Shown: positions 5,786-16,664, counted from the first letter of the stretch. The stretch: DNA of 64,000 nt from an uncultured Acidobacteriota bacterium (GCA_963822445.1 CAWGHO010000001.1:1248001-1312000); one strand, 5' to 3'. Notes: a model not told the origin generated them from the letters alone. Numbers and translations are program-made.

Positions 5786-8607
5786 CGCCGCACCCATGTG
5801 CGCAGCCGTCTGAGCGCCCATCGCGCCGCGCGCAGCGCGAACGTGAAGCCGGAGTCGACCGCCGCGACGGCGAGTGTCTTCCCCCATCCGCTCGGCGAGT
5901 GACGTGCTGCGGCGTCGTAGCCGGCGGCGAGGATGTAGTAGCGATCGTTGGCCGACGTTTCACCGTATGGCGCGATGCGCGCGGGAAGCGAGCTGCGGAC
6001 GTCGATGGAAACCGTTTGCGGCCGTTCGACGACCGGCTCGGGATAGGGCCAGATGCGCTCGCCGCGCGTGACGCAGAAGTCTGCGAGGCCGAGGAAGGGA
6101 GATTCGATCGCCAGCGCGCGGCCTTCAATCGCACGTTGAAACATCTCGCGACGCACGATGAGCGCGCCGCCGGACGTGACGCCATCGAGAAGACTCACCG
6201 CGACGCTGCCGCCGAGCGGCGGAACGACACGGATCCCGAAGTTGCCGGTGATGCTGCCCGCGGGCACGAGGCCATCGACGTGCGCGCGGCCGAGGGCGTC
6301 GAGCATTGGCGTGAATGCTTCGGGGAGCAGCGCCACGCCGGAGTGAATCAGCAACACCGCATCCTGGGCGATGCCCGCGAGCTCCGTCGCGATGGCGTCG
6401 TTCTCGGCCGAGAGGAGATCGATGTTCTCGTGGCGCAAGGGCTCGCCGCCGCGGTTGAGGATGATCACGCGATGAATCTGCGGGCAGGCCCACAGCGACT
6501 CGAGCGTGCGCGCGAGCGGGGCGCCGGCGGGATGATCGACGATCGCCGTGACGCTCGAGGCAGGTGATTCCGCATCGACCGCGCCCGGAAGGAGCTCCTG
6601 CCAGTGGGCGTGCATCTCCTTCCAGCTCCGTCGCGTCTCTTCCATTGACACAGCTGGACGCGCGATCCATCCGCCGTGCTCGATCGCACCCTCGAGCGCT
6701 TTGCGCAGCGCTTCGGTCGTGTGTTCAAAGAGCACGTGCTCGCGGTCAGCCTTCTCCACCAGCTCGGGGATGCCGCCGGTGCGTGCCGCGAGAAAGGGGA
6801 TTCCCGCGCCGAGAGTCTCGTAAATCGTGCAGGGCGAGTTGTCGAACGGCGACGGCATGACCGCGAGCTTCTCCCCTTCCCGCAGGTACTGCAGCGCCTC
6901 GGGCTGCCCGAGATCCGTGATCGTCCGAACGGGGAAGCTCCACGCCGCGGCGCGTTTCGCGATGTACTCGAGGCTGGGCATGCCGGCGCAGATCTGCGGC
7001 TTGCCGAGGAATGTGACGGTGATCCCGCGTCGCGCGAGCTCATCGGCCATCGCGTTCACGGCATTGCAGAAGAGGCGCAGACCTTTGCGTTCTTCGAGGC
7101 GTCCGAAGAAAACGATTTCCTTCGGCGGCGCGGTGCGGCCACGCTCAACATCAGACGCGGGCGCTCCCGGCATCACGTACTGCTGGATGTAGGTCTGCCG
7201 CGGCAGCTCGAAACCGCGCGAGGTGACCCAGTCCAGCAGGTAGCGGCTCGGACTCCAGAGCACATCGGCACAGGCGAGGCTGAGCCGCTCCGCGTAATCG
7301 AATGCCGCGCAGGTACGCGTTGCCGGCAGGAAGTGGTTGAGGTCGAAAACCCATCGCGACGGGCTGTGAAGCGCGACCACGAGCAGCGAATCACCGAACG
7401 CGAGGCCGAGCGCCTTCGCGGCGAGGGTTAGGCTTCCATCACCGCAACAGTCATTGAAGTGGATGACGTCGAAGCGGCGCTCGCGCAGCCGCTGGTAGAC
7501 GAGCCAGGGCGTGACGAAGCCGATTTCCTTGAGCGGCCCGTCGATCGTCTTCGTCTCCTCGATCGACAGCGCGATCAGCTCGATGCCCCGCGCGGCGTAA
7601 TGCTTCACCCACGGCGCCAGCCGCACCTCCGGCTGCCAGATCGCGCCTGTGTACAGCACCGTCACCGCGAAACCGTCGGCCCCGAGCATCTCCGCGAGAC
7701 CGGTCATCGACGTACCGACACCGCCGTTGTTGAACGGTCCGATCAGCTCGTTCGTGACGATGCAGATGGAAGGCCGGGAGGGCGCGTCGCGGTAGGTGCG
7801 ATCGCGCAGCGACGGGTAATCAGCCCGCGCGCGCAACTGCACGTCGATTCCCGAGATCGGCAGGCCGGCCACATGCGGCGGAAGCTGCCAGGCCACGTCG
7901 GGATCGGGCACGTGCGCGACCGGTGTGACGTCGCCGCGCCAGGCCATGGCCATGATCTGCGCCGTTTGATACACGACGACGTTGAAGCCTTTTTCCTTCA
8001 GGAATCGCAGCGCCGCCGTCACCGCCGGCGAAGCGAGATCGTGAAAAACGAACGCACAATCCTCGGCTGCATACGACAGCGCGGCCGCGGTATCGCGCAG
8101 CGGCGCGGGCGATTCGTGATCGCCGTCGATGAAGAACAGGCTCCAGCGCTGGTTCAACTCCGCGATGGACTCCGGGCTGCGGCCGCGCACGAGGTTCACC
8201 CGCTCGGCGACGCCGCAGCCGCGCAGTGAGTCTTCCACCGAGGCGCGGATGATCGGGTCTTCGTGCGCGGGATCGATCACGTCGAGCTGAACGCCGGCCA
8301 TGGCAAGGTGGCACGTCGACCATCCGAGCCAGCTCCCGATCTCCAGCGCGCGTTTGCCGGCGAACTGCAGGGCGATGTTGTGCAGCAGGACCGCTTCATC
8401 GCGGTTGAGGAAGCCCATGAGCGGGAAGCGTTCGTCGGCATACCAGCGGTGGGGCACGTCGCGGCGAAGGTACTTCCAGGGATGGTGCAGCGGATCGCCC
8501 GGCCGCATGTGCGGGAAGGCGTCGTCGAGCCGCACGACGCTCAGCCCCGGGGAGATGTAGTCGTAGAGCGACCAGGTCGCCTCGTCGGTCGGCGTGGTTA
8601 GAGGCAT
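5782..8607 (-). CDS. Methyltransferase + GT-B (GT4-like) glycosyltransferase + degenerate GT-A-like fusion
   Basis: LEIGSWLGWST and FIDGDH (Methyltransf_24-like); NGGVGT, FFGRLEERKG, PSPFDNSPCTIYE, GGIPELV (GT4-like). The probable start is ATG 8607; the upstream part of the long ORF overlaps wzm out of frame. Confidence 0.85.
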   Translation of the reverse strand: MPLTTPTDEATWSLYDYISPGLSVVRLDDAFPHMRPGDPLHHPWKYLRRDVPHRWYADERFPLMGFLNRDEAVLLHNIALQFAGKRALEIGSWLGWSTCHLAMAGVQLDVIDPAHEDPIIRASVEDSLRGCGVAERVNLVRGRSPESIAELNQRWSLFFIDGDHESPAPLRDTAAALSYAAEDCAFVFHDLASPAVTAALRFLKEKGFNVVVYQTAQIMAMAWRGDVTPVAHVPDPDVAWQLPPHVAGLPISGIDVQLRARADYPSLRDRTYRDAPSRPSICIVTNELIGPFNNGGVGTSMTGLAEMLGADGFAVTVLYTGAIWQPEVRLAPWVKHYAARGIELIALSIEETKTIDGPLKEIGFVTPWLVYQRLRERRFDVIHFNDCCGDGSLTLAAKALGLAFGDSLLVVALHSPSRWVFDLNHFLPATRTCAAFDYAERLSLACADVLWSPSRYLLDWVTSRGFELPRQTYIQQYVMPGAPASDVERGRTAPPKEIVFFGRLEERKGLRLFCNAVNAMADELARRGITVTFLGKPQICAGMPSLEYIAKRAAAWSFPVRTITDLGQPEALQYLREGEKLAVMPSPFDNSPCTIYETLGAGIPFLAARTGGIPELVEKADREHVLFEHTTEALRKALEGAIEHGGWIARPAVSMEETRRSWKEMHAHWQELLPGAVDAESPASSVTAIVDHPAGAPLARTLESLWACPQIHRVIILNRGGEPLRHENIDLLSAENDAIATELAGIAQDAVLLIHSGVALLPEAFTPMLDALGRAHVDGLVPAGSITGNFGIRVVPPLGGSVAVSLLDGVTSGGALIVRREMFQRAIEGRALAIESPFLGLADFCVTRGERIWPYPEPVVERPQTVSIDVRSSLPARIAPYGETSANDRYYILAAGYDAAARHSPSGWGKTLAVAAVDSGFTFALRAARWALRRLRTWVRR

Positions 8608-9383
8608 TCCCAGAAATGAGGCCGGAGTCGACGGAAAAGGGCCGCGCCGATGAGCATCAAGCCGCCTGCGATCGTCCAGAAGGCAACTGCTTCGGCGACG
8701 GTCGGCGCGGCGAACGCCTGTGGCAGCAGCGCATGACGGTATCCGGAGACGACGTACGCGGCGGGGTTGAGAGCCAGCAGCGACTGTCCGCGCGGCGGCA
8801 GCGCCGTCGGCGCCCACGCGATCGGTGTCACCCAGAACCAGACGTTGAGAAAGGAGGGAAGGACCTGCTGCACGTCCCGCACGATGACGGCCAGGCCGGA
8901 GAGCATCATCCCGATTCCATGCGCGAGCACGACCGCGCAAGCATAGAAGTAAGGAAGGAGCAGCAGTCCGGGGAAGCTCGCGTAGCCGGACGAGACCGAC
9001 GCCGCGAGCGTGAGCGCCAGCAGCACGACGTGCGGCAGCGACTGCACGACGATCGAGCTCGCGGAGATGATCTGCAACGGAAAGCGGACGCGCTTGACGA
9101 GATGGCGGTGACCGATGATCGATCCCACGCCGCTGCCGATGCCCGTGGAGATGAGCACCCAGGGCACATACGCCGCGGCGAAGCCGAGGACGTAGGGCGC
9201 TTTGCCGAGCGGGAGACGAAGGCCGAGGGAAAAAATGGCCGTGAAGCACAGCAGCGGGATGAGCGGCGTGAGCACCGCCCAGGCCATGCCTGCCGCCGTG
9301 CCCGCGTACGTACGCCGAAGCTCCTGACGCGCAAGCGACGCCAGCAGATGCCGATTCGGCCAGAGGCCAGCCCGCTCGCGCAT
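8598..9383 (-). CDS. wzm: Polysaccharide ABC exporter permease
   Basis: ELRRTYAGTAAGMAWAVLTPL, LVKRVRFP, RDVQQVL, TPIAW, LNP motifs; several hydrophobic TM segments; probable start ATG 9383. Confidence 0.9.
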   Translation of the reverse strand: MRERAGLWPNRHLLASLARQELRRTYAGTAAGMAWAVLTPLIPLLCFTAIFSLGLRLPLGKAPYVLGFAAAYVPWVLISTGIGSGVGSIIGHRHLVKRVRFPLQIISASSIVVQSLPHVVLLALTLAASVSSGYASFPGLLLLPYFYACAVVLAHGIGMMLSGLAVIVRDVQQVLPSFLNVWFWVTPIAWAPTALPPRGQSLLALNPAAYVVSGYRHALLPQAFAAPTVAEAVAFWTIAGGLMLIGAALFRRLRPHFWECL

Positions 9384-9452
9384 GAACTGGTTAGGGTACC
9401 ACCGGCCCCGATGATCGCCTCGCCGTGAAACGCTTTCGCGGCCATCGCCACT

Positions 9453-10433
9453 ATGCAGGTGATGGCACTCCTTAACGAAGGACAAAACGCGACGTCCCTG
9501 CCGCCGCTGCCGAAGCGGTTCCGGCACCACGTGCTCTTTTCGTACGCCTCGGCGGACGCGGAGTACGTACGGGCCGTTCGCGCCGCCTTGCCCAAGGAAG
9601 TCGACGCGTTCGACTACGCGGAAGGGGGCATGTGGGGCGAACAGCTCGTGAAAGGGCTCGAGCACCGCTACAAGAATGAAGCGCCGTTCTGCGTCGTCTT
9701 CATTTCGAAGGCCTATCTCGCCAGTCCGTGGACGCAGAAAGAGCTCGGCATCGTCCAGCGCGTCGCCAAACGCAAGCCCGGATACATGTTGCCGGTCGTG
9801 CTCGACGGCACGATCGTCCCCGAGATCGAAGGGATCGTCTGGCTCGACAAGACCCTGACTCCCGAGCAGCTCGCGGCGCGTCTCGTCGCGAAAATTCGCG
9901 AGCCGCCGCCGAAGCCCTGGTGGTTTTACGTTTCCACCGAAGTCAAAGTCGCGATTGCGGCGGTGCTGCTCGCGCTGATCCTCTTCGCGCGTCCGGCGGT
10001 CAACTACTTCCGCCCCTCGCGCACGACGATCCGGTCGGTGAGCGCGAACGCGCAGGAAATCACCGCGCGCCTCGTGAACAGCGGCCCGAAGAGTTCCACC
10101 GTGGTCGGCCAGCGATTGAAGTTCGGTGCTCTGCCGATCGAGGACGCGGTGCTGCATCTCGACAAGAAGGCGTCCGCGACGATCGCCCCCGGCGGGCACG
10201 ACCTGAAGCTGAAAGCGCTGACGCTCCTGACCAAGTGCGACGCCAACGGCATCCTCCCGAACAACGACATGGTTGCGGCCCTCCTCGGTCAGCAACCCGT
10301 CACGCTTGAAGTCGATGTCCGGGAGTCCGACGACCCTCCCGGCCAGACGACGCGGAGGATCGCGACGATCCCTGCCGCGCGTCTCGAACCGTTCGTCAGA
10401 AGGTTGGCACCGAATGATCTCGATGATTGCTAA
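9453..10433 (+). CDS. TIR-domain protein with one TM helix and a predicted extracytoplasmic C-terminal domain
   Basis: VLFSYASAD...FCVVFISKAYLASPWTQKE (catalytic Glu position kept)...MLPVVLD; hydrophobic VAIAAVLLALILFA segment; beta-rich C-terminal region of about 140 aa. Confidence 0.85.
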   Translation: MQVMALLNEGQNATSLPPLPKRFRHHVLFSYASADAEYVRAVRAALPKEVDAFDYAEGGMWGEQLVKGLEHRYKNEAPFCVVFISKAYLASPWTQKELGIVQRVAKRKPGYMLPVVLDGTIVPEIEGIVWLDKTLTPEQLAARLVAKIREPPPKPWWFYVSTEVKVAIAAVLLALILFARPAVNYFRPSRTTIRSVSANAQEITARLVNSGPKSSTVVGQRLKFGALPIEDAVLHLDKKASATIAPGGHDLKLKALTLLTKCDANGILPNNDMVAALLGQQPVTLEVDVRESDDPPGQTTRRIATIPAARLEPFVRRLAPNDLDDC

Positions 10434-11175
10434 GGCCCTGGTTTGCGTTCTTCTCGCCGCGACCGCGGCACAAGCCCAGATCACCACGTCCCAGGTGAAT
10501 GTGTTCGTCAGGGGCAAGCGTTGCAGCGAACTGACGAACGTCTACCTCGTCATCAACGGCAAAGACCTCGACAGCGGCTGGGTCAAGCTCGAGCCGGCCG
10601 GGCCCTGCCGGTGGAAGGCCGACCTCGGCAGCGGCACGATCTCCACGAGCAACGCGCGCTTCAGCCTCCGCGGCGACTTCGCGCGCTCCGATTGCCAACG
10701 GGCCGCCCCGAACGAGGAGCAGCTCACCGCCAACCTCGAGTTTGCCTGCTGCGTCGAGGGGCCGCTCCGCAACGTGAGCGTGAAGATCGACCCTCCGATG
10801 CCGGTCAGTTACGTCCGCGACGTGCGGCCCTTCCCCGGCGCCCGGGTCCCCGGGATCAAATGCCTGGAAAGAGCGACCTTCAGTGAAGGACAAGGCTCGA
10901 TCGGCCATGCGCAGTTTTCCGGCGAAGACGTCTATCTCCATCTCGGCCCGTTCGACAGGAAACAGCCGATGCTCGGGCTGCTGCTCGATGACGTCGTCAA
11001 CGACGATGGTCCGCTGGTGCTAACGCGCGAAGGCGTGGTCTACCGGCTGGCCGTGCAGCGTGCGAAAGGAAAAGCGCGGAGCGCGCCGGCGGTGTCGTCG
11101 AACGCGATCCTGATCGACAGCAAGAAACTGGGCACGCTGAAGCTCGAGCGGGCCGAGATCGAGGTGATGAAATGA
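10414..11175 (+). CDS. Cys-rich secreted hypothetical protein
   Basis: Signal peptide MIAKALVCVLLAATAAQA-Q; six Cys in the mature region; start (10414 or 10423) overlaps the end of the TIR gene. Confidence 0.7.
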   Translation: MISMIAKALVCVLLAATAAQAQITTSQVNVFVRGKRCSELTNVYLVINGKDLDSGWVKLEPAGPCRWKADLGSGTISTSNARFSLRGDFARSDCQRAAPNEEQLTANLEFACCVEGPLRNVSVKIDPPMPVSYVRDVRPFPGARVPGIKCLERATFSEGQGSIGHAQFSGEDVYLHLGPFDRKQPMLGLLLDDVVNDDGPLVLTREGVVYRLAVQRAKGKARSAPAVSSNAILIDSKKLGTLKLERAEIEVMK

Positions 11176-12125
11176 CTCGTGCAGCCGCAATCCTCTTTGC
11201 TCTGGTCTTCGCCCTGACAGCCGCCGCGCAGGACCCGCTCTTCGGTCCGGATGACTCCGTCGATCCGCGCGCGACCGGCGGACGGCCGGTGTTCATCTCG
11301 CGGCTGGTCATCGGCGCCGCATCGAACATGAACGGCGACGGCTTCCGCCCCCTCGGCGAAAACGTCGGATACGTGCATCTCGCGACGAGTTTTTCCTGGC
11401 GGTCGGTGCAGTTCGATTACAAGCGGAGCCAGTTGAAGGCCGAAGATGGGGAGGCGGCGTTGTGGAACGTCAGCCAGGAGCGAGACCTGCTCATCTCTCC
11501 GCCACCACCGCAACAACCGCAGGAATCGCGGCTGATGCGCAACGCCACTCCGAAATCGAAAGACACGTTGAACGCGGCGGTTTACTGGCCGGTGCCGGTT
11601 GGCACGGGGATCCCGGTGATGCTTCGGTCACGGGTCACGTTCACGACGCAGCCGATCGATACGGAGGTCGTCGAGGACTCAGAGCTGCAACGCATGTCCG
11701 GCCGCGAGCGCACCTTCGCCATCGACACCGACACATGGTTTCGCGTCGCCGGTCTCAACGTATTCGGCTCACTCGCCGTCTCTGAAACGGAGACCACCGG
11801 CACACTTGCTGACCGCAAAGAGCGCGCACTCACCTACACCAATCGCTTTCCATCGCTCTCTCTCGATCGAGCAAAGATCCTGATCCGCCCGACTCTCACC
11901 GTCGGGGGCATCTCGAACCGCGGCGGCTCGGCGGTGAACCTCGTCAATCCGGCAATCGAGATCTTCCGGCCGTTCCTGCGCACCGGCGCAAACTTCCACC
12001 TCATCTACAGCCCGCAGTGGGTCAACGAAAACAATCCGCTCACTGAAATCGACGACGCGCGATGGGGGACCACGCATCAGGTCGCGATTTACCTCGACTA
12101 CCCGATCTTCGCGAAGATTTTCTAG
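11172..12125 (+). CDS. Secreted, probable outer-membrane beta-barrel hypothetical protein
   Basis: Signal peptide MTRAAAILFALVFALTAAA-Q; amphipathic beta-strand patterns; C-terminal Phe ([11 protein letters not shown]); ATGA-coupled to the upstream gene. Confidence 0.65.
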   Translation: MTRAAAILFALVFALTAAAQDPLFGPDDSVDPRATGGRPVFISRLVIGAASNMNGDGFRPLGENVGYVHLATSFSWRSVQFDYKRSQLKAEDGEAALWNVSQERDLLISPPPPQQPQESRLMRNATPKSKDTLNAAVYWPVPVGTGIPVMLRSRVTFTTQPIDTEVVEDSELQRMSGRERTFAIDTDTWFRVAGLNVFGSLAVSETETTGTLADRKERALTYTNRFPSLSLDRAKILIRPTLTVGGISNRGGSAVNLVNPAIEIFRPFLRTGANFHLIYSPQWVNENNPLTEIDDARWGTTHQVAIYLDYPIFAKIF

Positions 12126-14116
12126 AACACGGTTCCGAGGCCGATGCGGACGACCTCTCCGCCCCGGCGTTGAATCTGATCGACCATGTCCGCGGTGCCG
12201 CCCGGCCCGTCACCCTCTTTGCCGTTCCAGAGCGCGATGAGGGTCACGCGGCGGCTGCCGTTGGCGAGCGCGTTGTGCAGCATCCAGAGATTGTTGCGTT
12301 GCCAGACGCTGTAATCGGTGCGGTGCGCAAGCCACCGCGGCAGGTCCTCGGATGACTGCAGCACGCGGACGGGCGTCTTTTTCACGAGATCGTAAAACCT
12401 GCGCGTCCACTCAGGTCCGGCGGAGCTGACGGATCGCGTCGCGTACTCCTCCTCCGGAAGCGCGAGATAGACGGTCGTCGCGATTCCCCGCGCCTGACAT
12501 TCCTCATGGAAGAGGATGTCCCCTCCGCTCGCCGCGCCGGAAATTCCGATGACGTGATTGCCATGATGCGCAACGGCGCTGTCGATCGCGGCGCGTATCT
12601 CCTGTCGCGCGATGTCGACTTTGTCCGGAGGGAAACGGGGCGTCGCGCGATCCGGATCATCGACCCGATGTCCGGTGAACAGCAGCACATGCGGCGGATT
12701 CGGTCCGGATTGCGCTTCCGGCAATGTGTCGAGCGCCGCGCGTGCTGCCTCTTCGTAGATGCCGAGGCGGAGGAACATTTCCAGTTGTGCGCGTACGGCG
12801 CCGACCTGGAACGGCGAGATGCCGCGCACGAGGTTGTAGCGGCCCTTGACGCGACTGGCTGATTCGCCGCGATAGAACGACAGGTCCGCCTCGCTGATGT
12901 TCGCCCACAGATCCTGCGTGCCCGCGGCTTTGGCGAGCTCCTGTTCCGCATCGATCGAGGCCTGGACGGTCACGATCAGATCGGCGAGCCTTTTTTTACA
13001 CTGAGCCAGCTCGTGATCGGGATCATCGCTCTCGGAGCTGCCACGCCAGGTCTCCGAATCGGCGATCGCAAGTTGAGTAAGGATTACCAGCAGCCCGACG
13101 GCGTTGATGCCGGGAAAGTAGTTCGTGAGGTCGGTCCTGAATCCGGTCGAGTAGTGCTCGAAGGCCTGGCGCAGCCATCCCGATCCGAGTGCGCACCGGC
13201 GCGCCGCGTCGCGGTCTGCTTTCTCCGACCATTCCTTCAACCACTGGTTTTTTGCGTTGCGTCCTTTGAGCGCCAGCGCCTCGGCGCGTGCGCGGCGCGG
13301 AATGTCCGGCTGTGCGAGCACGCGATCGATGGCGATGTCCGAGTCGGCGAGACGGCCGAGTCGCTGATCGATGGTCGCCAGGAGGGTGTTGGTCTCGACG
13401 TCGTCCGCATCGAATCGGCGGACTGCTTCCCACGTCTCCTTCGCCGCTTCCATCGCCCGGAGTGCGAACTGCGCGCGGCCGATTGCCCGCAATCCCGTGC
13501 GCGCCCACGACACGCCCTCGATTTCCTCGGTGAGCAGCGCCAGATCGCCGGGAAGTTTTTCAGCCTTCGCGCGCTCGACCTCCGTGAGAAATGCCGGCGG
13601 CGCGGCGAGGAACGACTCCGCGTTCTGCTCGACCATGTCCGGCAGCAGGTTGAAAACGGGACTGTCGGTGACGCCTGCATGAATCGTCGCGTGAAGCGTC
13701 CGGACGAGATCGTCGACCGACGCCGCGGGGTTCTTGTCGTCGTAGGTGATGTAACGGTCGGTGAAGAGATCGAACACGACCTTGTCGCCGCCTTCCCGTC
13801 CGCGAATCATCACCGTCGCCGCGCGCCGCAACGCGTGGCGCAGACCGAGCTCGTAGAAGACGTTCGCGTTGTGAATGGAGACATCGGCGATGACGATGTC
13901 GGCAACCAGCAGCGCCTGGAACATGTCCGTGCGGATGTTGCCCGTGCGCAGGATCTCCATCGTCGTGCGTCCGTTGATGCCGAGGCGCTTCAGGGCGGGG
14001 TCGATCAACTCGGCCTCGACGCGGTCGAAATCGATTCCGCTCTTCGTTCCGAAGGGACGCACGATGAACGCGCGCCGGCTGCGCGTGTCCATGGTGGCCT
14101 GCGGGATGTCCGTCAT
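12122..14116 (-). CDS. Deoxyribohydrolase/nucleoside deoxyribosyltransferase-like domain + TPR (DUF4071/MAP3K TRAF-binding-like) + SLOG-like domain protein
   Basis: N-terminus: AFIVRPFG...DFDRV...[24 protein letters not shown]. Central TPR region: [16 protein letters not shown]-terminus: LFTGHRVD...PRFP...[13 protein letters not shown]...RNNLWM...[16 protein letters not shown]. Confidence 0.75.
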
Positions 14117-15234
14117 ACGAATCGGTCGAAGTGGTGCGCTTTCACCTTCATCTTACCCACGGCCTGTCCGACCTGCTGCAGTTCCGGAATGGCACCGATC
14201 GAATCGAGCTGCTGGACGTTCTGCGGTTTGATGCGCGGGAGCTTCAGTTTGTCGAGACCTTCGCGCGTGAGCTCGGTGTTGTAACGCACGTACGTGAAGA
14301 GCTTTTCTTTCGTGGGACCTTTCTTGCCGATCATGTCGCCGACCTCGCGATCGAGCTCGTCGCCGGCCAGCGTGTCTCCGAACGCGCGGCAGAGGAAATC
14401 CTGTTCATTGAGCGCGGCGAACATCAACGCGGACGGAATCGACGACGCGTTGTAGAGGAGGTTCATCTGGCCCGGCTGCAGGTCGTTGTTTGCGCTCGCG
14501 GCGGTGCCGGTGCCGATCGAGACGATGAGCATCCTGTCGCGGCCCGTCTCCCAGCAGAGGTTGTACGACTCGACCGTGGCCATCAGGAAAAGCTGGAAGG
14601 CCGGGTTGTTGTACATGGTCATTCCGCCGTCGACGAAGATGAAGCGCTGTTTCCCGATGTCGACCGCCTCGGGCGGAAAGTACGTCGGCGCGGCCGTGCT
14701 GGCGCGGACGAGCTGCCAGAGCGGCAGATTGAGATTGCAGTCGTCGCGATCGGCGGCGCAGTACTTCGCGGCCGGGTTGTTGGACAGCGGCCACGGAGAG
14801 TCGGTCGTCGCGTTGCGCAGGACCATCATCAGAAGGGTGCGCAGCTTCGTGCTCCCGAGCGTGGTGTTCGCACCGATGACCTGCCGCAGCTTCTTCGCCA
14901 GCGGCTCGTTCTCGAACTTGTAGTGCAGCTTGCGCAGCAGTCCGGCCCGGTCGAACATGGCCGGTCCGCTGTCGATGTAGAACTTGCGGATGTCGTCCAC
15001 GCGCATGCCGAGGGAGAGACAGGTGGCGATGATCGCGCCGGTGCTCGTGCCGGCGATGTAGTCGAAGTAATCGGAGAGAACGAACGTGTCGTCGCGCTTC
15101 AGGCGCTTCTGCAGCAGCGCTTCGATGGTGGCGAGGATCTCGACGGTCATCATCCCGCGAATGCCGCCTCCGTCGAGCGCGAGAAGCTTGCGGTTCGGTC
15201 TCGGTTCCAGTTTGGATTTGAAGGATGTGGCCAT
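14113..15234 (-). CDS. Patatin-like phospholipase (cytoplasmic)
   Basis: DGGGIRG, GTSTG (catalytic Ser), [13 protein letters not shown] (catalytic Asp); no signal peptide; ATGA-coupled to the downstream gene. Confidence 0.92.
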
Positions 15235-15280: not shown

Positions 15281-15904
15281 TCAACGGCTCATGCGAACGC
15301 CCACGTTCATGCGTCGATCGCGGTCCCACGCGGCGCCGTCGCCAGTGAGCGTCCGAAACTCGGCGAAGAGTGCCATCCGTCGCGTCACGAGTCCCGTCAC
15401 CGCGATTCCAAGATCGCCATTGATGCGTTCTTCGACATCAACCGCGAAAAAGGACCACGGCACGAGGTTTTGCGGTGTCAGATCCTCGACGGTGGGCTTC
15501 GCGACGTATCGAACACCGACTACTGTCGAAACGTCGACCCGCTCGGACAAGCGCCACGGAACGCGTGCGCCGAGGACCACGGCCGAACTGGAGATCTTCA
15601 TGCGGTGCGTGTCGAAGCAGGTATTCCGAACCGTGCCACAGAGCCTGCCGCCGGCGGTTACCGCGAGAACGTCCCGACGACGCTCGATCGCGACTTCCAG
15701 CGAGAAGCGCGGATGTACCGGCCACTCGAACGCCGCCCCGACAGCACCCTCCCACGAACGGATTTGCTCCCGGCCGTTAACGGAGGTTTGTTCCGTGGAG
15801 GGGTGAGTGATGCCGCTGCCGTACAAGGAGATCGTGGCCTTTCGCTGACCTTCTGCACGGCAGAGCGGCAGCAGCAAAAGCACCAGGAAAAGAACTTTCC
15901 TCAT
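15281..15904 (-). CDS. Outer-membrane beta-barrel protein (OmpW/OmpA-like)
   Basis: Signal peptide MRKVLFLVLLLLPLCRAEG; alternating beta-strand patterns (GAVGAAFEW, FSLEVAIE, VGVRYV, ALFAEFR). Confidence 0.6.
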   Translation of the reverse strand: MRKVLFLVLLLLPLCRAEGQRKATISLYGSGITHPSTEQTSVNGREQIRSWEGAVGAAFEWPVHPRFSLEVAIERRRDVLAVTAGGRLCGTVRNTCFDTHRMKISSSAVVLGARVPWRLSERVDVSTVVGVRYVAKPTVEDLTPQNLVPWSFFAVDVEERINGDLGIAVTGLVTRRMALFAEFRTLTGDGAAWDRDRRMNVGVRMSR

Positions 15905-15990
15905 GGTGGCTGAACAGATACGGCGTTGGGTGCACGGGTGTTGGCGGGGAGGCGTCACGGCGCCCGCGAGGTACAATCGCGCGAGTCATC

Positions 15991-16242
15991 ATGCCTGCAA
16001 CGCACACCACTGATCTGGAAACGGAGCTGCGTTACTTCGGCGAGCATCGATCCGATTTGTTGGAGACAGCGGCTGGTAAGTTTGCACTGGTCAAGGGTGA
16101 GACTCTGATCGGAACGTTCGACTCCGAAACGGAAGCAATACGGCATGGATATCAGACGCTCGGAAACGTCGCGTTTCTCGTCAAGCAAGTCACCGAAGCA
16201 GACATCCCGCTCAGCTTCACTTCTTTTAATCTCGGGGTGTAG
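15991..16242 (+). CDS. Small protein, DUF5678-like
   Basis: YF..HR..LL..AAGKFALVKGETLIGTFDSETEAIRHGY...FLVKQV pattern; directly abuts an aspartic protease gene. Confidence 0.65.
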   Translation: MPATHTTDLETELRYFGEHRSDLLETAAGKFALVKGETLIGTFDSETEAIRHGYQTLGNVAFLVKQVTEADIPLSFTSFNLGV

Positions 16243-16664
16243 TTGCCTTCCTTCGAGATTTCTCTTCCCGACCTGAAAACCTCAGGCCCGATCGTCCAGG
16301 GCTTCATCGGACCGTCTCGTGAGTTGATCAGTGCGCTGGGCGCCGATGCGGTTGCTGCGCCGATCCCTGTCTCGGCACTGGTCGATACAGGCGCGGCAGC
16401 CACGGTCATAACGCCCGAGACGGCGGCCTTGCTCCGGCTCCGCAGCGTTGGAGCCGTTTCAGTGCATACGCCCACGACGATCGAGCCGGTGCTTTGTCGG
16501 CAGTTCCACGTGAACGTGTATCTCTCGTCCAGTTTCGCAATCGAGAACGTCGTGAAGCACCGCTGACTGGTCAGTCATTCCAGTGTCTTGTCGGTCGTGA
16601 CGTTCTCAGTCGCGGCGTTTTCACGTACGACGGCATTCGCAGTCGTTTCAGTCTCACCTTCTGA
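16243..16664 (+). CDS. Retropepsin-like (clan AA) aspartic protease, frameshifted near 16553
   Basis: ALVDTGAAAT in the first frame (stop at 16566). The expected C-terminus, EAPLTGQSFQCLVGRDVLSRGVFTYDG...FSLTF*, continues in another frame to TGA 16662-16664. Confidence 0.8.

Follow-up and report, generated by a model that had tools for sequence, protein, structure and literature searches.

Genes D and E, which encode a three-domain protein with a TPR-S core and a patatin-like phospholipase, appear to form a widespread, self-contained two-gene module of immune type that moves horizontally and belongs to the TPR-S family; with moderate confidence, we regard the neighboring TIR operon A-B-C as separate and not an obligatory partner. 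Both operons lie in a 64,000-nucleotide stretch of DNA from an uncultured Acidobacteriota bacterium (hereinafter the window), where they are convergent and tightly packed, and all five open reading frames (ORFs) are confirmed:

9453-10433, + strand: A, 326 aa, TIR domain, single transmembrane (TM) segment and periplasmic domain
about 10414-11175, + strand: B, about 253 aa, exported, signal peptide ...AAQA/Q
11172-12125, + strand: C, 317 aa, exported
12122-14116, - strand: D, 664 aa, three domains, resembling ThsI but extended by a SLOG tail
14113-15234, - strand: E, 373 aa, CapV-like patatin-like phospholipase

Neighboring genes overlap by 4 nt at both B/C and E/D, and by 11 or 20 nt at A/B, depending on which ATG starts B. 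Judging from where its relatives begin, A probably starts at its second ATG (9462). ORFs, overlaps and stops bear out the original prediction of two tightly coupled, head-on operons with a common CTAG at 12122-12125, in which TAG on the + strand is the stop codon of C and its complement that of D on the - strand. The common CTAG follows trivially from the abutment of two stop codons and is statistically uninformative. A-B-C is a transcription unit apart from D-E, and both operons sit in a variable chromosome region, with no PBP1A-side synteny in any of the same-genus genomes compared (16/16).

E matches the Pfam family Patatin (PF01734; 3.1e-27, 96.5 bits), the PADLOC phospholipase effector PDLC00758 (1.6e-46) and NCBIfam CBASS_lipase (6.8e-36; 124 bits, under the cut-off of 200). 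All hallmarks of patatin-like phospholipases, namely the Gly-rich oxyanion loop, the GxSxG nucleophile and the DG[AG] Asp, are present, in agreement with the patatin lipase predicted originally:

15154-15174, - strand: oxyanion motif DGGGIRG, residues 21-27 of E
15037-15051, - strand: nucleophile motif GTSTG (Ser64), residues 62-66 of E
14620-14634, - strand: VDGGM motif, residues 201-205 of E

D is built from a head, a TPR-S middle and a SLOG tail:

13667-14074, - strand: head, residues about 15-150, Rossmann-like N-glycosidase-type domain
13844-13864, - strand: head motif NVFYELG with the invariant E89
12725-13660, - strand: middle, residues about 153-464, all-helical TPR region (helical in the model)
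13091-13453, - strand: Pfam TPR-S match (PF20308)
12125-12709, - strand: tail, residues 470-664, SLOG-fold domain of YpsA type
12518-12538, - strand: invariant tail loop GxASGGD
12194-12214, - strand: invariant tail loop GDGPGGT

The head may be of the nucleoside-deoxyribosyltransferase/DNPH1-like type, a weak assignment: its profile matches DNPH1/Rcl at E 0.03-0.07 with the catalytic YELG Glu of DNPH1 aligned, and E89 is invariant in 30/30 and 31/31 alignment rows. The head also matches the PADLOC 'CBASS effector TIR' model (8.7e-7) and displays no profile similarity to the TIR domain of A (hhalign probability 0.1%). With an N-glycosidase-type head of its own, D may not need a separate TIR. 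The TPR-S match in the middle (4.6e-12) scores 46.9 bits, above the gathering score of 27.6. The full-length AlphaFold model of D has a pLDDT of 86.6, and the highest query TM score among the Foldseek hits of D belongs to the ASK1 cryo-EM chain 8qgy_B (0.29 over 505 columns). A likeness to the N-terminal region of animal ASK1 (MAP3K5) is further indicated by D-like relatives that match Pfam MAP3K_TRAF_bd (1e-46 to 3e-47); unlike ASK1, D has no kinase domain and its context is a bacterial conflict system. The SLOG-like end that had been proposed for D is weak by sequence (Pfam YAcAr, E 0.084, below threshold) and is confirmed by the fold of its predicted domain model (pLDDT 91.7), for which the top PDB match in Foldseek is YpsA 2nx2 (E 1.8e-5, TM 0.62/0.67), with further matches to ShosA, DprA, the TRPM2 chanzyme, MCP and TM1055. 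The two invariant Gly-rich loops are presumably the ligand loops of this nucleotide-binding SLOG type, and ESM Atlas points the tail to the YspA SLOG family (0.87) as a lead only.

Across genomes, 59 of 80 loci have a patatin gene next to D in the same orientation, 51 times upstream and 8 times downstream, with a median gap of 48 nt, which establishes the patatin and the hydrolase-TPR-SLOG protein as a genuine conserved pair in both gene orders. These loci span Acidobacteriota, Nitrospirota, Myxococcota, Cyanobacteria, Bacteroidota, Actinomycetota and Pseudomonadota. Full-length relatives of D number at least 2,202, and a D relative is encoded in 447 of the 494 pattern-matched stretches from a species-genome collection. 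D is 73% and 71% identical at the two closest loci (L001 and L002), and locus L005 combines an E that is 82% identical with a D that is only 49% identical. Where the patatin gene is missing, TIR_2, DUF4062-iSTAND, Metallophos or Trypsin-TPR-S genes neighbor D instead. The linkage of the TPR-S core to effector genes is conserved, as in TPR-S-centered conflict systems, and the patchy spread across phyla, the D/E shuffling and the effector swapping point to conflict-system dynamics.

The same dynamics argue against an alternative that we consider quite improbable, in which D-E is not anti-phage but a physiological nucleotide-sensing module for lipid remodeling or stress, or a non-phage conflict system, and the TIR operon is an unrelated envelope complex. 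Three observations fit this alternative: full-length D is absent among the 80 listed of 88 relatives in viral contigs and among 63 plasmid records; a literature search on the D(SLOG)-patatin pair turned up only the BcTir/Tpr preprint (bioRxiv 10.1101/2023.05.26.542521) and no tested member; and zinc-ribbon-headed relatives of A-B-C resemble ordinary envelope modules. Against it, the nearest families of E are CBASS and anti-phage lipases, and relatives that combine TIR with a TPR core are experimentally defensive.

Systems centered on TPR-S and NAD-derived signals are said to have been predicted by Burroughs and Aravind in J Bacteriol in 2020. Such predicted TPR-S systems and type VIII Thoeris are the nearest known relatives of D-E. 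D-E is not the new kind of system that the original prediction envisaged, but a member of the TPR-S family, to which type VIII Thoeris also belongs, with the SLOG tail and the patatin partner as a variation. Type VIII Thoeris is described as a ThsB TIR (signal: canonical cADPR) together with ThsI, a 'CMP hydrolase' plus TPR (Yirmiya et al. 2025, bioRxiv 10.64898/2025.12.03.692087); the same paper states that the ThsI TPR was predicted by Aravind's group to sense NAD-derived signals and that added cADPR is toxic to cells with the system. D likewise joins a putative nucleotide N-glycosidase-type head to a TPR region with a TIR gene nearby, a likeness to ThsI at the level of domain descriptions. 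Unlike type VIII Thoeris, D adds a C-terminal SLOG domain and has a patatin lipase as partner, an adjacent TIR is missing from most D-E loci (a co-directional one is present in 7/80 D loci), and the only TIR of the window, A, is convergent and membrane-anchored, whereas ThsB lies in the effector operon. Tables S1-S3 of the type VIII Thoeris paper may include the D-E configuration.

In BcTir/Tpr, the N-terminal glycosidase of Tpr makes a cADPR isomer, and that preprint gives 78 Tpr-core operons with the partner classes Tir (28), YspA (5) and patatin (4), and also LSDAT and calcineurin (bioRxiv 10.1101/2023.05.26.542521). D shares the TPR-S core and probably the N-terminal glycosidase with BcTir/Tpr and TPR-S systems, and its neighbors match the TIR, YspA/SLOG, patatin and calcineurin partner classes. 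By contrast with TPR-S systems that have a separate SLOG gene, SLOG is fused to the core in D; patatin pairing is dominant for D and rare among the Tpr-core operons of the preprint (59/80 versus 4/78), and the D subfamily is very large. E is most similar to the phospholipase effectors of CBASS, of which CapV is one, but unlike in CBASS there is no CD-NTase cyclase among the 6 proteins scanned with PADLOC, which matched only effector models, or the 8 scanned with Pfam. The co-occurrence of a TIR gene and a SLOG-bearing protein recalls type I Thoeris (ThsB TIR and ThsA SIR2-SLOG), from which the locus differs in that the Pfam scan of 8 proteins yields no SIR2 family, the YpsA-type SLOG stands behind an N-glycosidase-TPR-S body and the TIR lies outside the operon. 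The absence of a cyclase and of SIR2 that had been envisaged agrees with these scans.

A-B-C is an envelope-spanning module, with a cytoplasmic TIR, a TM segment and a periplasmic domain in A, the exported B and the probable outer-membrane protein C:

9531-9854, + strand: TIR_2 domain of A
9729-9743, + strand: WTQKE motif of A with the catalytic-position Glu (E97)
9930-9986, + strand: TM segment of A, by hydropathy
9993-10430, + strand: periplasmic domain of A, with two near-invariant Cys

The TIR domain of A (residues 27-134) matches Pfam TIR_2 at 4.1e-13 (50.3 bits versus a cut-off of 28), and E97 is invariant in 24/24 aligned relatives; A is thus a TIR fold with a catalytic-position Glu, as originally proposed, and NADase activity is predicted. 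C262 and C326 are conserved at 90% or more, and the 93 relatives of A are each at least 49% identical. B, the signal peptide of which is read from the sequence, has no Pfam, PADLOC or NCBIfam match and no usable lead in ESM Atlas. Of 12 genome loci, 11 have B after A and one is cut off by its contig end; the order is the same in 20/20 metagenome loci. C has no family match in Pfam, PADLOC or NCBIfam and terminates in F317, which is invariant in the C-family alignment. A-B-C is confined to one acidobacterial family, in which the C family is present in 38 of 124 genomes. The cytoplasmic head varies among the envelope operons: an ad hoc profile finds TIR in 4 of 20 further C-family loci, and the 8 non-TIR heads scanned comprise 5 double zinc ribbons, 1 weak EAD1, 1 sub-threshold DUF4396 match and 1 without a match.

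A rival reading that we regard as possible but doubtful joins all five genes in one system, in which the envelope TIR receptor A-B-C would answer an outer-membrane or periplasmic event with a cADPR-type signal, which would act through D (TPR-S/SLOG) on the D head and the patatin E. Triggering from the envelope, which the original prediction had also put forward, we infer rather than observe. The distribution of the genes speaks against a single system. No homologue of A, B or C is found in the 80 D loci, the two closest included; D and E are absent from 3/3 metagenome loci where A-B-C is followed by a long flank, and D, E and D-like genes from 20/20 further C-family loci. Nine A-bearing loci include C and extend far enough downstream; of these, only the window and L257 (genome G421) have a TPR-S module, which is absent downstream at the other seven (L109, L113-L115, L126, L129 and L135). 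Both modules are present but far apart in genomes G087 and G043, the latter of which has the closest A-B-C (83%), yet carries its D-E pair on another contig. Within the family, 20 of 21 other D-like loci are without a TIR in the fetched stretch (at most about 8 kb per side), and a by-eye comparison of 45 C-family places shows only those of G421 and of the genome carrying the window (G000) to share a neighborhood with a TPR-S place. In addition, convergent orientation implies separate promoters, and membrane-anchored TIRs are common in G000, where about half of the 17 TIR ORFs contain a TM segment.

The five-gene reading is favored by the recurrence of the arrangement. A-type TIR operons adjoin three different TPR-S/patatin module types in three lineages: in the window, D(SLOG)-E; in the g9 lineage, a TPR-S-patatin fusion accompanied by a 450-aa D-like gene (L108, L111 and L130; the D-like gene alone is found at L112 and at L133, which is ended by a contig end, and the fusion directly follows A-B at L139); and at L257, a patatin with a 418-aa D-like gene. 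Real coupling with D-E is therefore conceivable, but all three juxtapositions fall within one bacterial family. The adjacency has outlived A-B allele replacement, with flanking genes 93-95% identical and A and B 50-70%. TPR-S (E<=1e-10) is present in 13/13 genomes with A versus 25/111 without (Fisher 4e-8 uncorrected; p = 0.016 and 0.035 within genera), statistics that ignore phylogeny and genome size. The single TPR-S gene of G000, D, abuts one of the 17 TIR ORFs in 6 Mb, and the chance of D lying within 2 kb of any of them is about 1% by an arithmetic estimate. Recurrent adjacency and genome-level co-occurrence count against treating the two operons as fully independent.

Elsewhere, an ad hoc profile places a TIR within 8 kb of D in 18/80 loci. 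The seven co-directional adjacent TIR genes include three with patatin (L008, L011 and L030) and four without (L016, L022, L050 and L070), a convergent TIR gene directly follows D at L015, L054 and L068, and plasmid operons of the form TIR-TIR-core-TIR exist. Type VIII Thoeris and BcTir/Tpr also each require a TIR plus a TPR protein. However, the convergent TIR neighbors of D mostly belong to independent system types, e.g. TIR-NACHT-TPR and TIR-WD40, and TIR is only about 6.5-fold richer in D loci than the G000 genome average; together, these fit the clustering in a defense island that the original prediction had allowed for. Of the TIR-SLOG-patatin circuit proposed there, operons of TIR and D, with or without patatin, are found in other genomes, but A-B-C is not co-inherited with D-E. 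TIR operons beside three modules and TIR operon partners in 7/80 loci make a TIR-sensor-patatin circuit plausible, though unproven.

The self-contained reading of D-E, which we prefer, has to accommodate that D-like/ThsI-type effectors are described as TIR-signal-dependent, although a TIR is lacking at most D-E loci. In the proposed mechanism, infection would give rise to an ADP-ribose-derived signal, the source of which could be a TIR in cis, a TIR in trans or the head of D itself. The TPR-S and/or SLOG domains of D would bind the signal, and D would then activate its own head, leading to attack on nucleotides or NAD, and would also license E to degrade membrane lipids. By analogy, the nucleotide-gated lipase is likely the killing step, and the infected cell would be killed or arrested.

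The five genes lie in two convergent operons as originally predicted, and both the coordinates and the CTAG double stop held on checking.

Five-gene block and its bordering genes (window coordinates)
8598-9428, minus strand, Wzm-type permease gene (NCBIfam, 9.7e-12), one border of the block
9453-10433, plus strand, A, ORF encoding a TIR-TM-periplasmic protein
about 10414-11175, plus strand, B, ORF encoding an exported protein
11172-12125, plus strand, C, ORF encoding an exported protein
12122-14116, minus strand, D, ORF encoding a head/TPR-S/SLOG protein
14113-15234, minus strand, E, ORF encoding a CapV-like patatin
15281-15976, small exported protein gene, the other border of the block

The genes are as tightly packed as claimed: the overlaps measure 4 nt for B/C and for E/D and 11 or 20 nt for A/B, and the CTAG at 12122-12125 is common to the stop codons of C and D. 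GC content over the region is unremarkable (0.61-0.66), and A, B, C, D and E each occur once in the 6.0-Mb genome. Scanning for promoters and terminators yielded 0 promoter-like sites, and terminator-like sites were not clearly above shuffled controls. A synteny comparison beside PBP1A, aimed at the insertion history, found no gene common to any of 16 same-genus genomes, indicating that the five-gene region is a variable part of the chromosome. Between the small exported protein gene and PBP1A (15991-16566) lie an 83-aa ORF and then a 107-aa ORF, the latter matching a retropepsin-like aspartyl protease (Asp_protease_2, 3.6e-5, at the cut-off); the two ORFs stand beside PBP1A in no same-genus genome.

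The assignment of E as a patatin lipase is borne out by its Pfam match (PF01734, 3.1e-27) and by an intact oxyanion loop, GTSTG nucleophile and DGG Asp. Its closest curated families are CBASS phospholipase effectors (PADLOC, 1.6e-46), and on the NCBIfam CBASS_lipase model it scores 124 bits, under the cut-off of 200. The structure model of D (pLDDT 86.6) contains three domains. The head (residues about 15-150) is an alpha/beta domain with an NVFYELG motif that is invariant in alignments of relatives; its sole matches in a profile search are DNPH1/Rcl N-glycosidases, at weak significance (E 0.03-0.07), in an alignment that places the catalytic Glu on E89 of D. The head also matches a PADLOC CBASS effector model labelled TIR (8.7e-7). 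Aligned with the canonical TIR of A by hhalign, it returned a probability of 0.1%, that is, no profile similarity, and we therefore do not class the head as a TIR domain.

The middle part of D (residues about 153-464) is helical and carries Pfam TPR-S above the cut-off. A whole-D profile search against PDB sequences returned generic TPR proteins only, and TPR proteins dominated the whole-D Foldseek search, among whose matches an ASK1 chain had the best query coverage; the tail (residues 470-664) was therefore folded alone (pLDDT 91.7). Its best Foldseek match is YpsA (E 1.8e-5, TM 0.62/0.67), followed by ShosA, DprA, TRPM2 chanzyme and Moco carrier protein, and a SLOG-domain profile search gave nothing meaningful. 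By its model the tail has the SLOG fold. With a weakly DNPH1-like head, TPR-S and a YpsA-type fold, the 'hydrolase-TPR-SLOG' label proposed for D is borne out, its hydrolase part as a probable assignment.

The D family is large: a word-index search (8,000 candidates) recovered at least 2,202 proteins at E<=0.001, nearly all of about 660 aa, and a D relative is encoded in 447 of 494 pattern-matched stretches of a species-genome collection. We compared the best 80 of these 447 loci, leaving the other 367 aside; the 80 are spread over at least seven phyla. In 59 of them a patatin homologue is the neighbour of D on its own strand, lying upstream as in the window in 51 loci and downstream in eight, with a median gap of 48 nt. 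D and E identities disagree between loci (in L005, E is 82% and D 49% identical), indicating that the two are shuffled as parts between loci. The 21 loci lacking patatin, two of which are too short to judge, often adjoin other conflict-type genes: TIR_2 proteins neighbour D in L016, L022, L050, L070 and L015, a DUF4062-iSTAND protein takes the place of patatin in L028, and a calcineurin-like phosphoesterase and a Trypsin-TPR-S protein do so in L059. L016 (6444-10031) and L070 (6420-10019) encode D behind a ParA-like/nSTAND1 N-terminal part of ~520 aa in a single fusion protein of 1,195-1,199 aa, and the TIR_2 gene lies directly upstream of the fusion.

A shorter D core (residues 16-346, without SLOG) occurs in 63 plasmid records. 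A 9.9-kb Acinetobacter plasmid carries a TIR-TIR-core-TIR operon around it, and Rhizobium plasmid loci combine the core with three TIR genes, DUF4231 and patatin. In one of these, L161 (NZ_CP104156.1, 13424-24431), the core ('TRAFs-binding domain protein') lies amid three TIR genes, together with a QueC-like 7-cyano-7-deazaguanine synthase, an HhH-GPD glycosylase, a carbohydrate kinase and a DUF4231 protein, a nucleotide-modifying context richer than that of the window. On IMG/VR viral contigs, 88 of 119 pattern-matched stretches were confirmed as relatives; the 80 listed (L164-L243) are stand-alone relatives of the D head only (~residues 14-125, 28-38% identity), and none extends past residue 230 toward a full-length D. 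These viral proteins could be nucleoside-modifying enzymes or decoys.

PADLOC 2.0 has no system-level model that covers D-E, and a full-text literature search for an experimentally tested pair of patatin and TPR-S/SLOG proteins brought up only the preprint of Liu et al. (bioRxiv 10.1101/2023.05.26.542521). According to that preprint, defence by BcTir/Tpr requires both genes, and a cADPR isomer is made by the N-terminal glycosidase of Tpr. Its authors also re-analyse 78 Tpr-core operons from the Burroughs & Aravind 2020 set, in which the core stands alone in 29 and partners include Tir (28), YspA (5), patatin (4), LSDAT and calcineurin. Type VIII Thoeris, as set out in another preprint (Yirmiya et al., bioRxiv 10.64898/2025.12.03.692087), comprises a TIR protein that produces canonical cADPR on infection and the effector ThsI, a 'CMP hydrolase' joined to a TPR that its authors identify with the one predicted by Aravind's group; cells with the system are poisoned by added cADPR. 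Given these relatives, D-E belongs to a known and partly validated kind, the likeness of D to ThsI being drawn from domain descriptions. Unlike in ThsI systems, the ThsI-like hub of D-E carries SLOG as a fused tail and has a lipase as its partner. The reading we favour for D-E is a self-contained TPR-S-family module in which a ThsI-like/SLOG protein, so likened by its domains, is paired with a patatin.

On the plus strand, A was predicted to be a TIR protein with the catalytic-position Glu, and it indeed carries a cytoplasmic TIR_2 domain (4.1e-13) in which this Glu is invariant, followed by one TM helix (160-178) and an outer domain of 145 residues in which two cysteines are near-invariant. 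B and C each carry a signal peptide and matched no family in Pfam, PADLOC or NCBIfam; an ESM Atlas search with B gave a best score of 0.83, with recognition below the mark and no usable lead. C ends in an invariant Phe and is therefore a putative outer-membrane protein. The A family is narrow, with 93 proteins that are all at least 49% identical; within the window's bacterial family A is encoded by 13 of 124 genomes, and no other family sampled from the class has it, matches outside the family being confined to the TIR domain. The gene after A is B in 11 of 12 genome loci (the twelfth stops at a contig end) and in 20 of 20 metagenome loci, and C is present in some A-B loci only. A D relative (P0008) and an A relative (P0139) both have a longest contig of 11,366 bases and may lie on one contig repeating the window's layout.

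Searched with a C profile, the 124 genomes gave 45 places in 38 genomes; 20 of these places were retrieved (L264-L283). An A-type outer-domain gene lies upstream of C in 16 of these 20, and by an ad hoc profile only four of the 16 are TIR-headed. Eight non-TIR heads were scanned: five match a double zinc ribbon, one matches EAD1 weakly, one has only a sub-threshold DUF4396 match and one is without match. A-B-C thus has paralogous envelope operons across the bacterial family, all built on one conserved outer part to which different cytoplasmic heads are joined, in the order [variable cytoplasmic head]-TM-A-type outer domain, B-like gene, C. The domains of A diverge uniformly (TIR 52%, periplasmic 54%), with no sign that the outward-facing part alone is diversifying. 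In genus g9 and related metagenome loci (L108, L111, L130, L133, L139), A and B are 50-70% identical between loci, and the flanking gene upstream of A and a D-like gene are 93-95% identical, suggesting allele replacement or diversifying selection on A-B. Distant A'-B'-C' operons in L113, L114 and L257 are preceded on the same strand by genes for large surface proteins. In L113 and L114 the proteins carry Ice-binding-like and He_PIG domains, in L257 He_PIG repeats and an IPTL-CTERM motif; the genes may be part of that operon unit.

The original prediction joined the two operons in a single circuit, and the neighbourhood comparison supports this in part. On the negative side, a homologue of A, B or C was found in none of the best 80 of 447 D loci, the closest included, and D, E or a D-like gene in none of the 20 further C-family loci. 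Nine A-bearing loci have C and enough downstream flank; a TPR-S module is present in two (the window and L257 of genome G421) and absent from L109, L113-L115, L126, L129 and L135. The closest A-B-C (83% identity, G043) has D-E on a separate contig, and in G087 the A-type and D-E modules are 1.6 Mb apart. Of the 24 D-like places in the bacterial family, three are on short contig ends; in 20 of the other 21 there is no TIR in the retrieved stretch (<=~8 kb each side). In other phyla, convergent TIR genes after D mostly belong to independent system types, for example TIR-NACHT-TPR and TIR-TM-WD40. At other places A-B(-C) lies beside further genes of the conflict type, among them CHAT-TPR and HEPN AbiU2, which fits clustering in a defence island. 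We rejected the TIR-TM architecture as a marker of a special partner, since about half of the 17 TIR ORFs in the window's own genome carry a TM segment. A complex prediction of D with the TIR domain of A (residues 1-150) scored 0.00 and 0.00, a result that, from a run without controls, is neutral on binding.

In favour of coupling, A-type operons adjoin three module types, all inside one bacterial family. The first is in the window, where the single TPR-S gene of the 6-Mb genome (D) meets one of its 17 TIR ORFs. In genus g9 and related metagenome contigs, the gene after A-B is a convergent D-like gene of 450 aa (L108, L111, L112, L130, L133; MAP3K_TRAF_bd about 1e-47, TPR-S about 1e-25, no SLOG), with a TPR-S-patatin fusion beside it in L108, L111 and L130 and directly after A-B in L139. 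In L257, the distant A'-B'-C' operon (outer domain of A' 27% identical to that of A, E 1e-8; C' 33% identical to C) and a second TIR gene adjoin a patatin and a 418-aa D-like gene. TPR-S (E<=1e-10) is present in 13 of 13 genomes with A vs 25 of 111 without (Fisher 4e-8, which ignores phylogeny and genome size), and inside genera the co-occurrence gives p 0.016 and 0.035; these tallies and that of the C profile include G418 and G179, flagged as unpublished, and no claim hangs on those two alone. By an ad hoc profile, 18 of the 80 D loci contain a TIR ORF, which in seven is a co-directional neighbour of D, three of these operons (L008, L011, L030) also containing patatin. TIR density in D loci is ~6.5x the average of the window's genome, and a 0.27-Mb control contained no TIR. 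Elsewhere in the window's genome, on contig C2 (~2,159,000-2,228,000), eight of the 17 TIR-domain ORFs lie within ~70 kb, two of them being identical 450-aa frames.

Taken on its own, A-B-C is a separate, TIR-headed envelope module. That A should signal to D makes biological sense, and the comparison of loci and genomes lends it some support; we consider such a link possible, if rather unlikely. The periplasmic domain of A, with exported B and outer-membrane C, would sense a cell-surface event such as phage adsorption or injection and relay it across the membrane to the cytoplasmic TIR domain, whose ADPR-derived product ThsI-like TPR-S/SLOG hubs would detect in trans, firing the patatin lipase; both the sensor heads (TIR, zinc ribbon, EAD1) and the effector hubs would be interchangeable. 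We hold this full scheme to be doubtful; the identity of the signal, the domain that binds it and the licensing of the lipase are all steps that we infer. If true, a Thoeris-type pathway would here keep watch on the envelope, not the cytoplasm.

With at least 2,202 proteins in many phyla, the D-E pair would be among the larger members of the immune world built on TIR and NAD-derived signals, and it joins three features so far studied only apart: a head like that of ThsI, a SLOG domain in the same chain and a lipase as partner. Most D-E copies have no TIR gene alongside. The trigger of D-E, once found, would tell whether ThsI-type hubs work without a dedicated TIR, heed TIRs encoded elsewhere or produce their own signal, and such work would reveal the ligands of TPR-S and of SLOG separately. 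The A-B-C family, which keeps its envelope core as the cytoplasmic head alternates between TIR and zinc ribbon, is a candidate route by which the cell envelope could feed into immunity or signalling.
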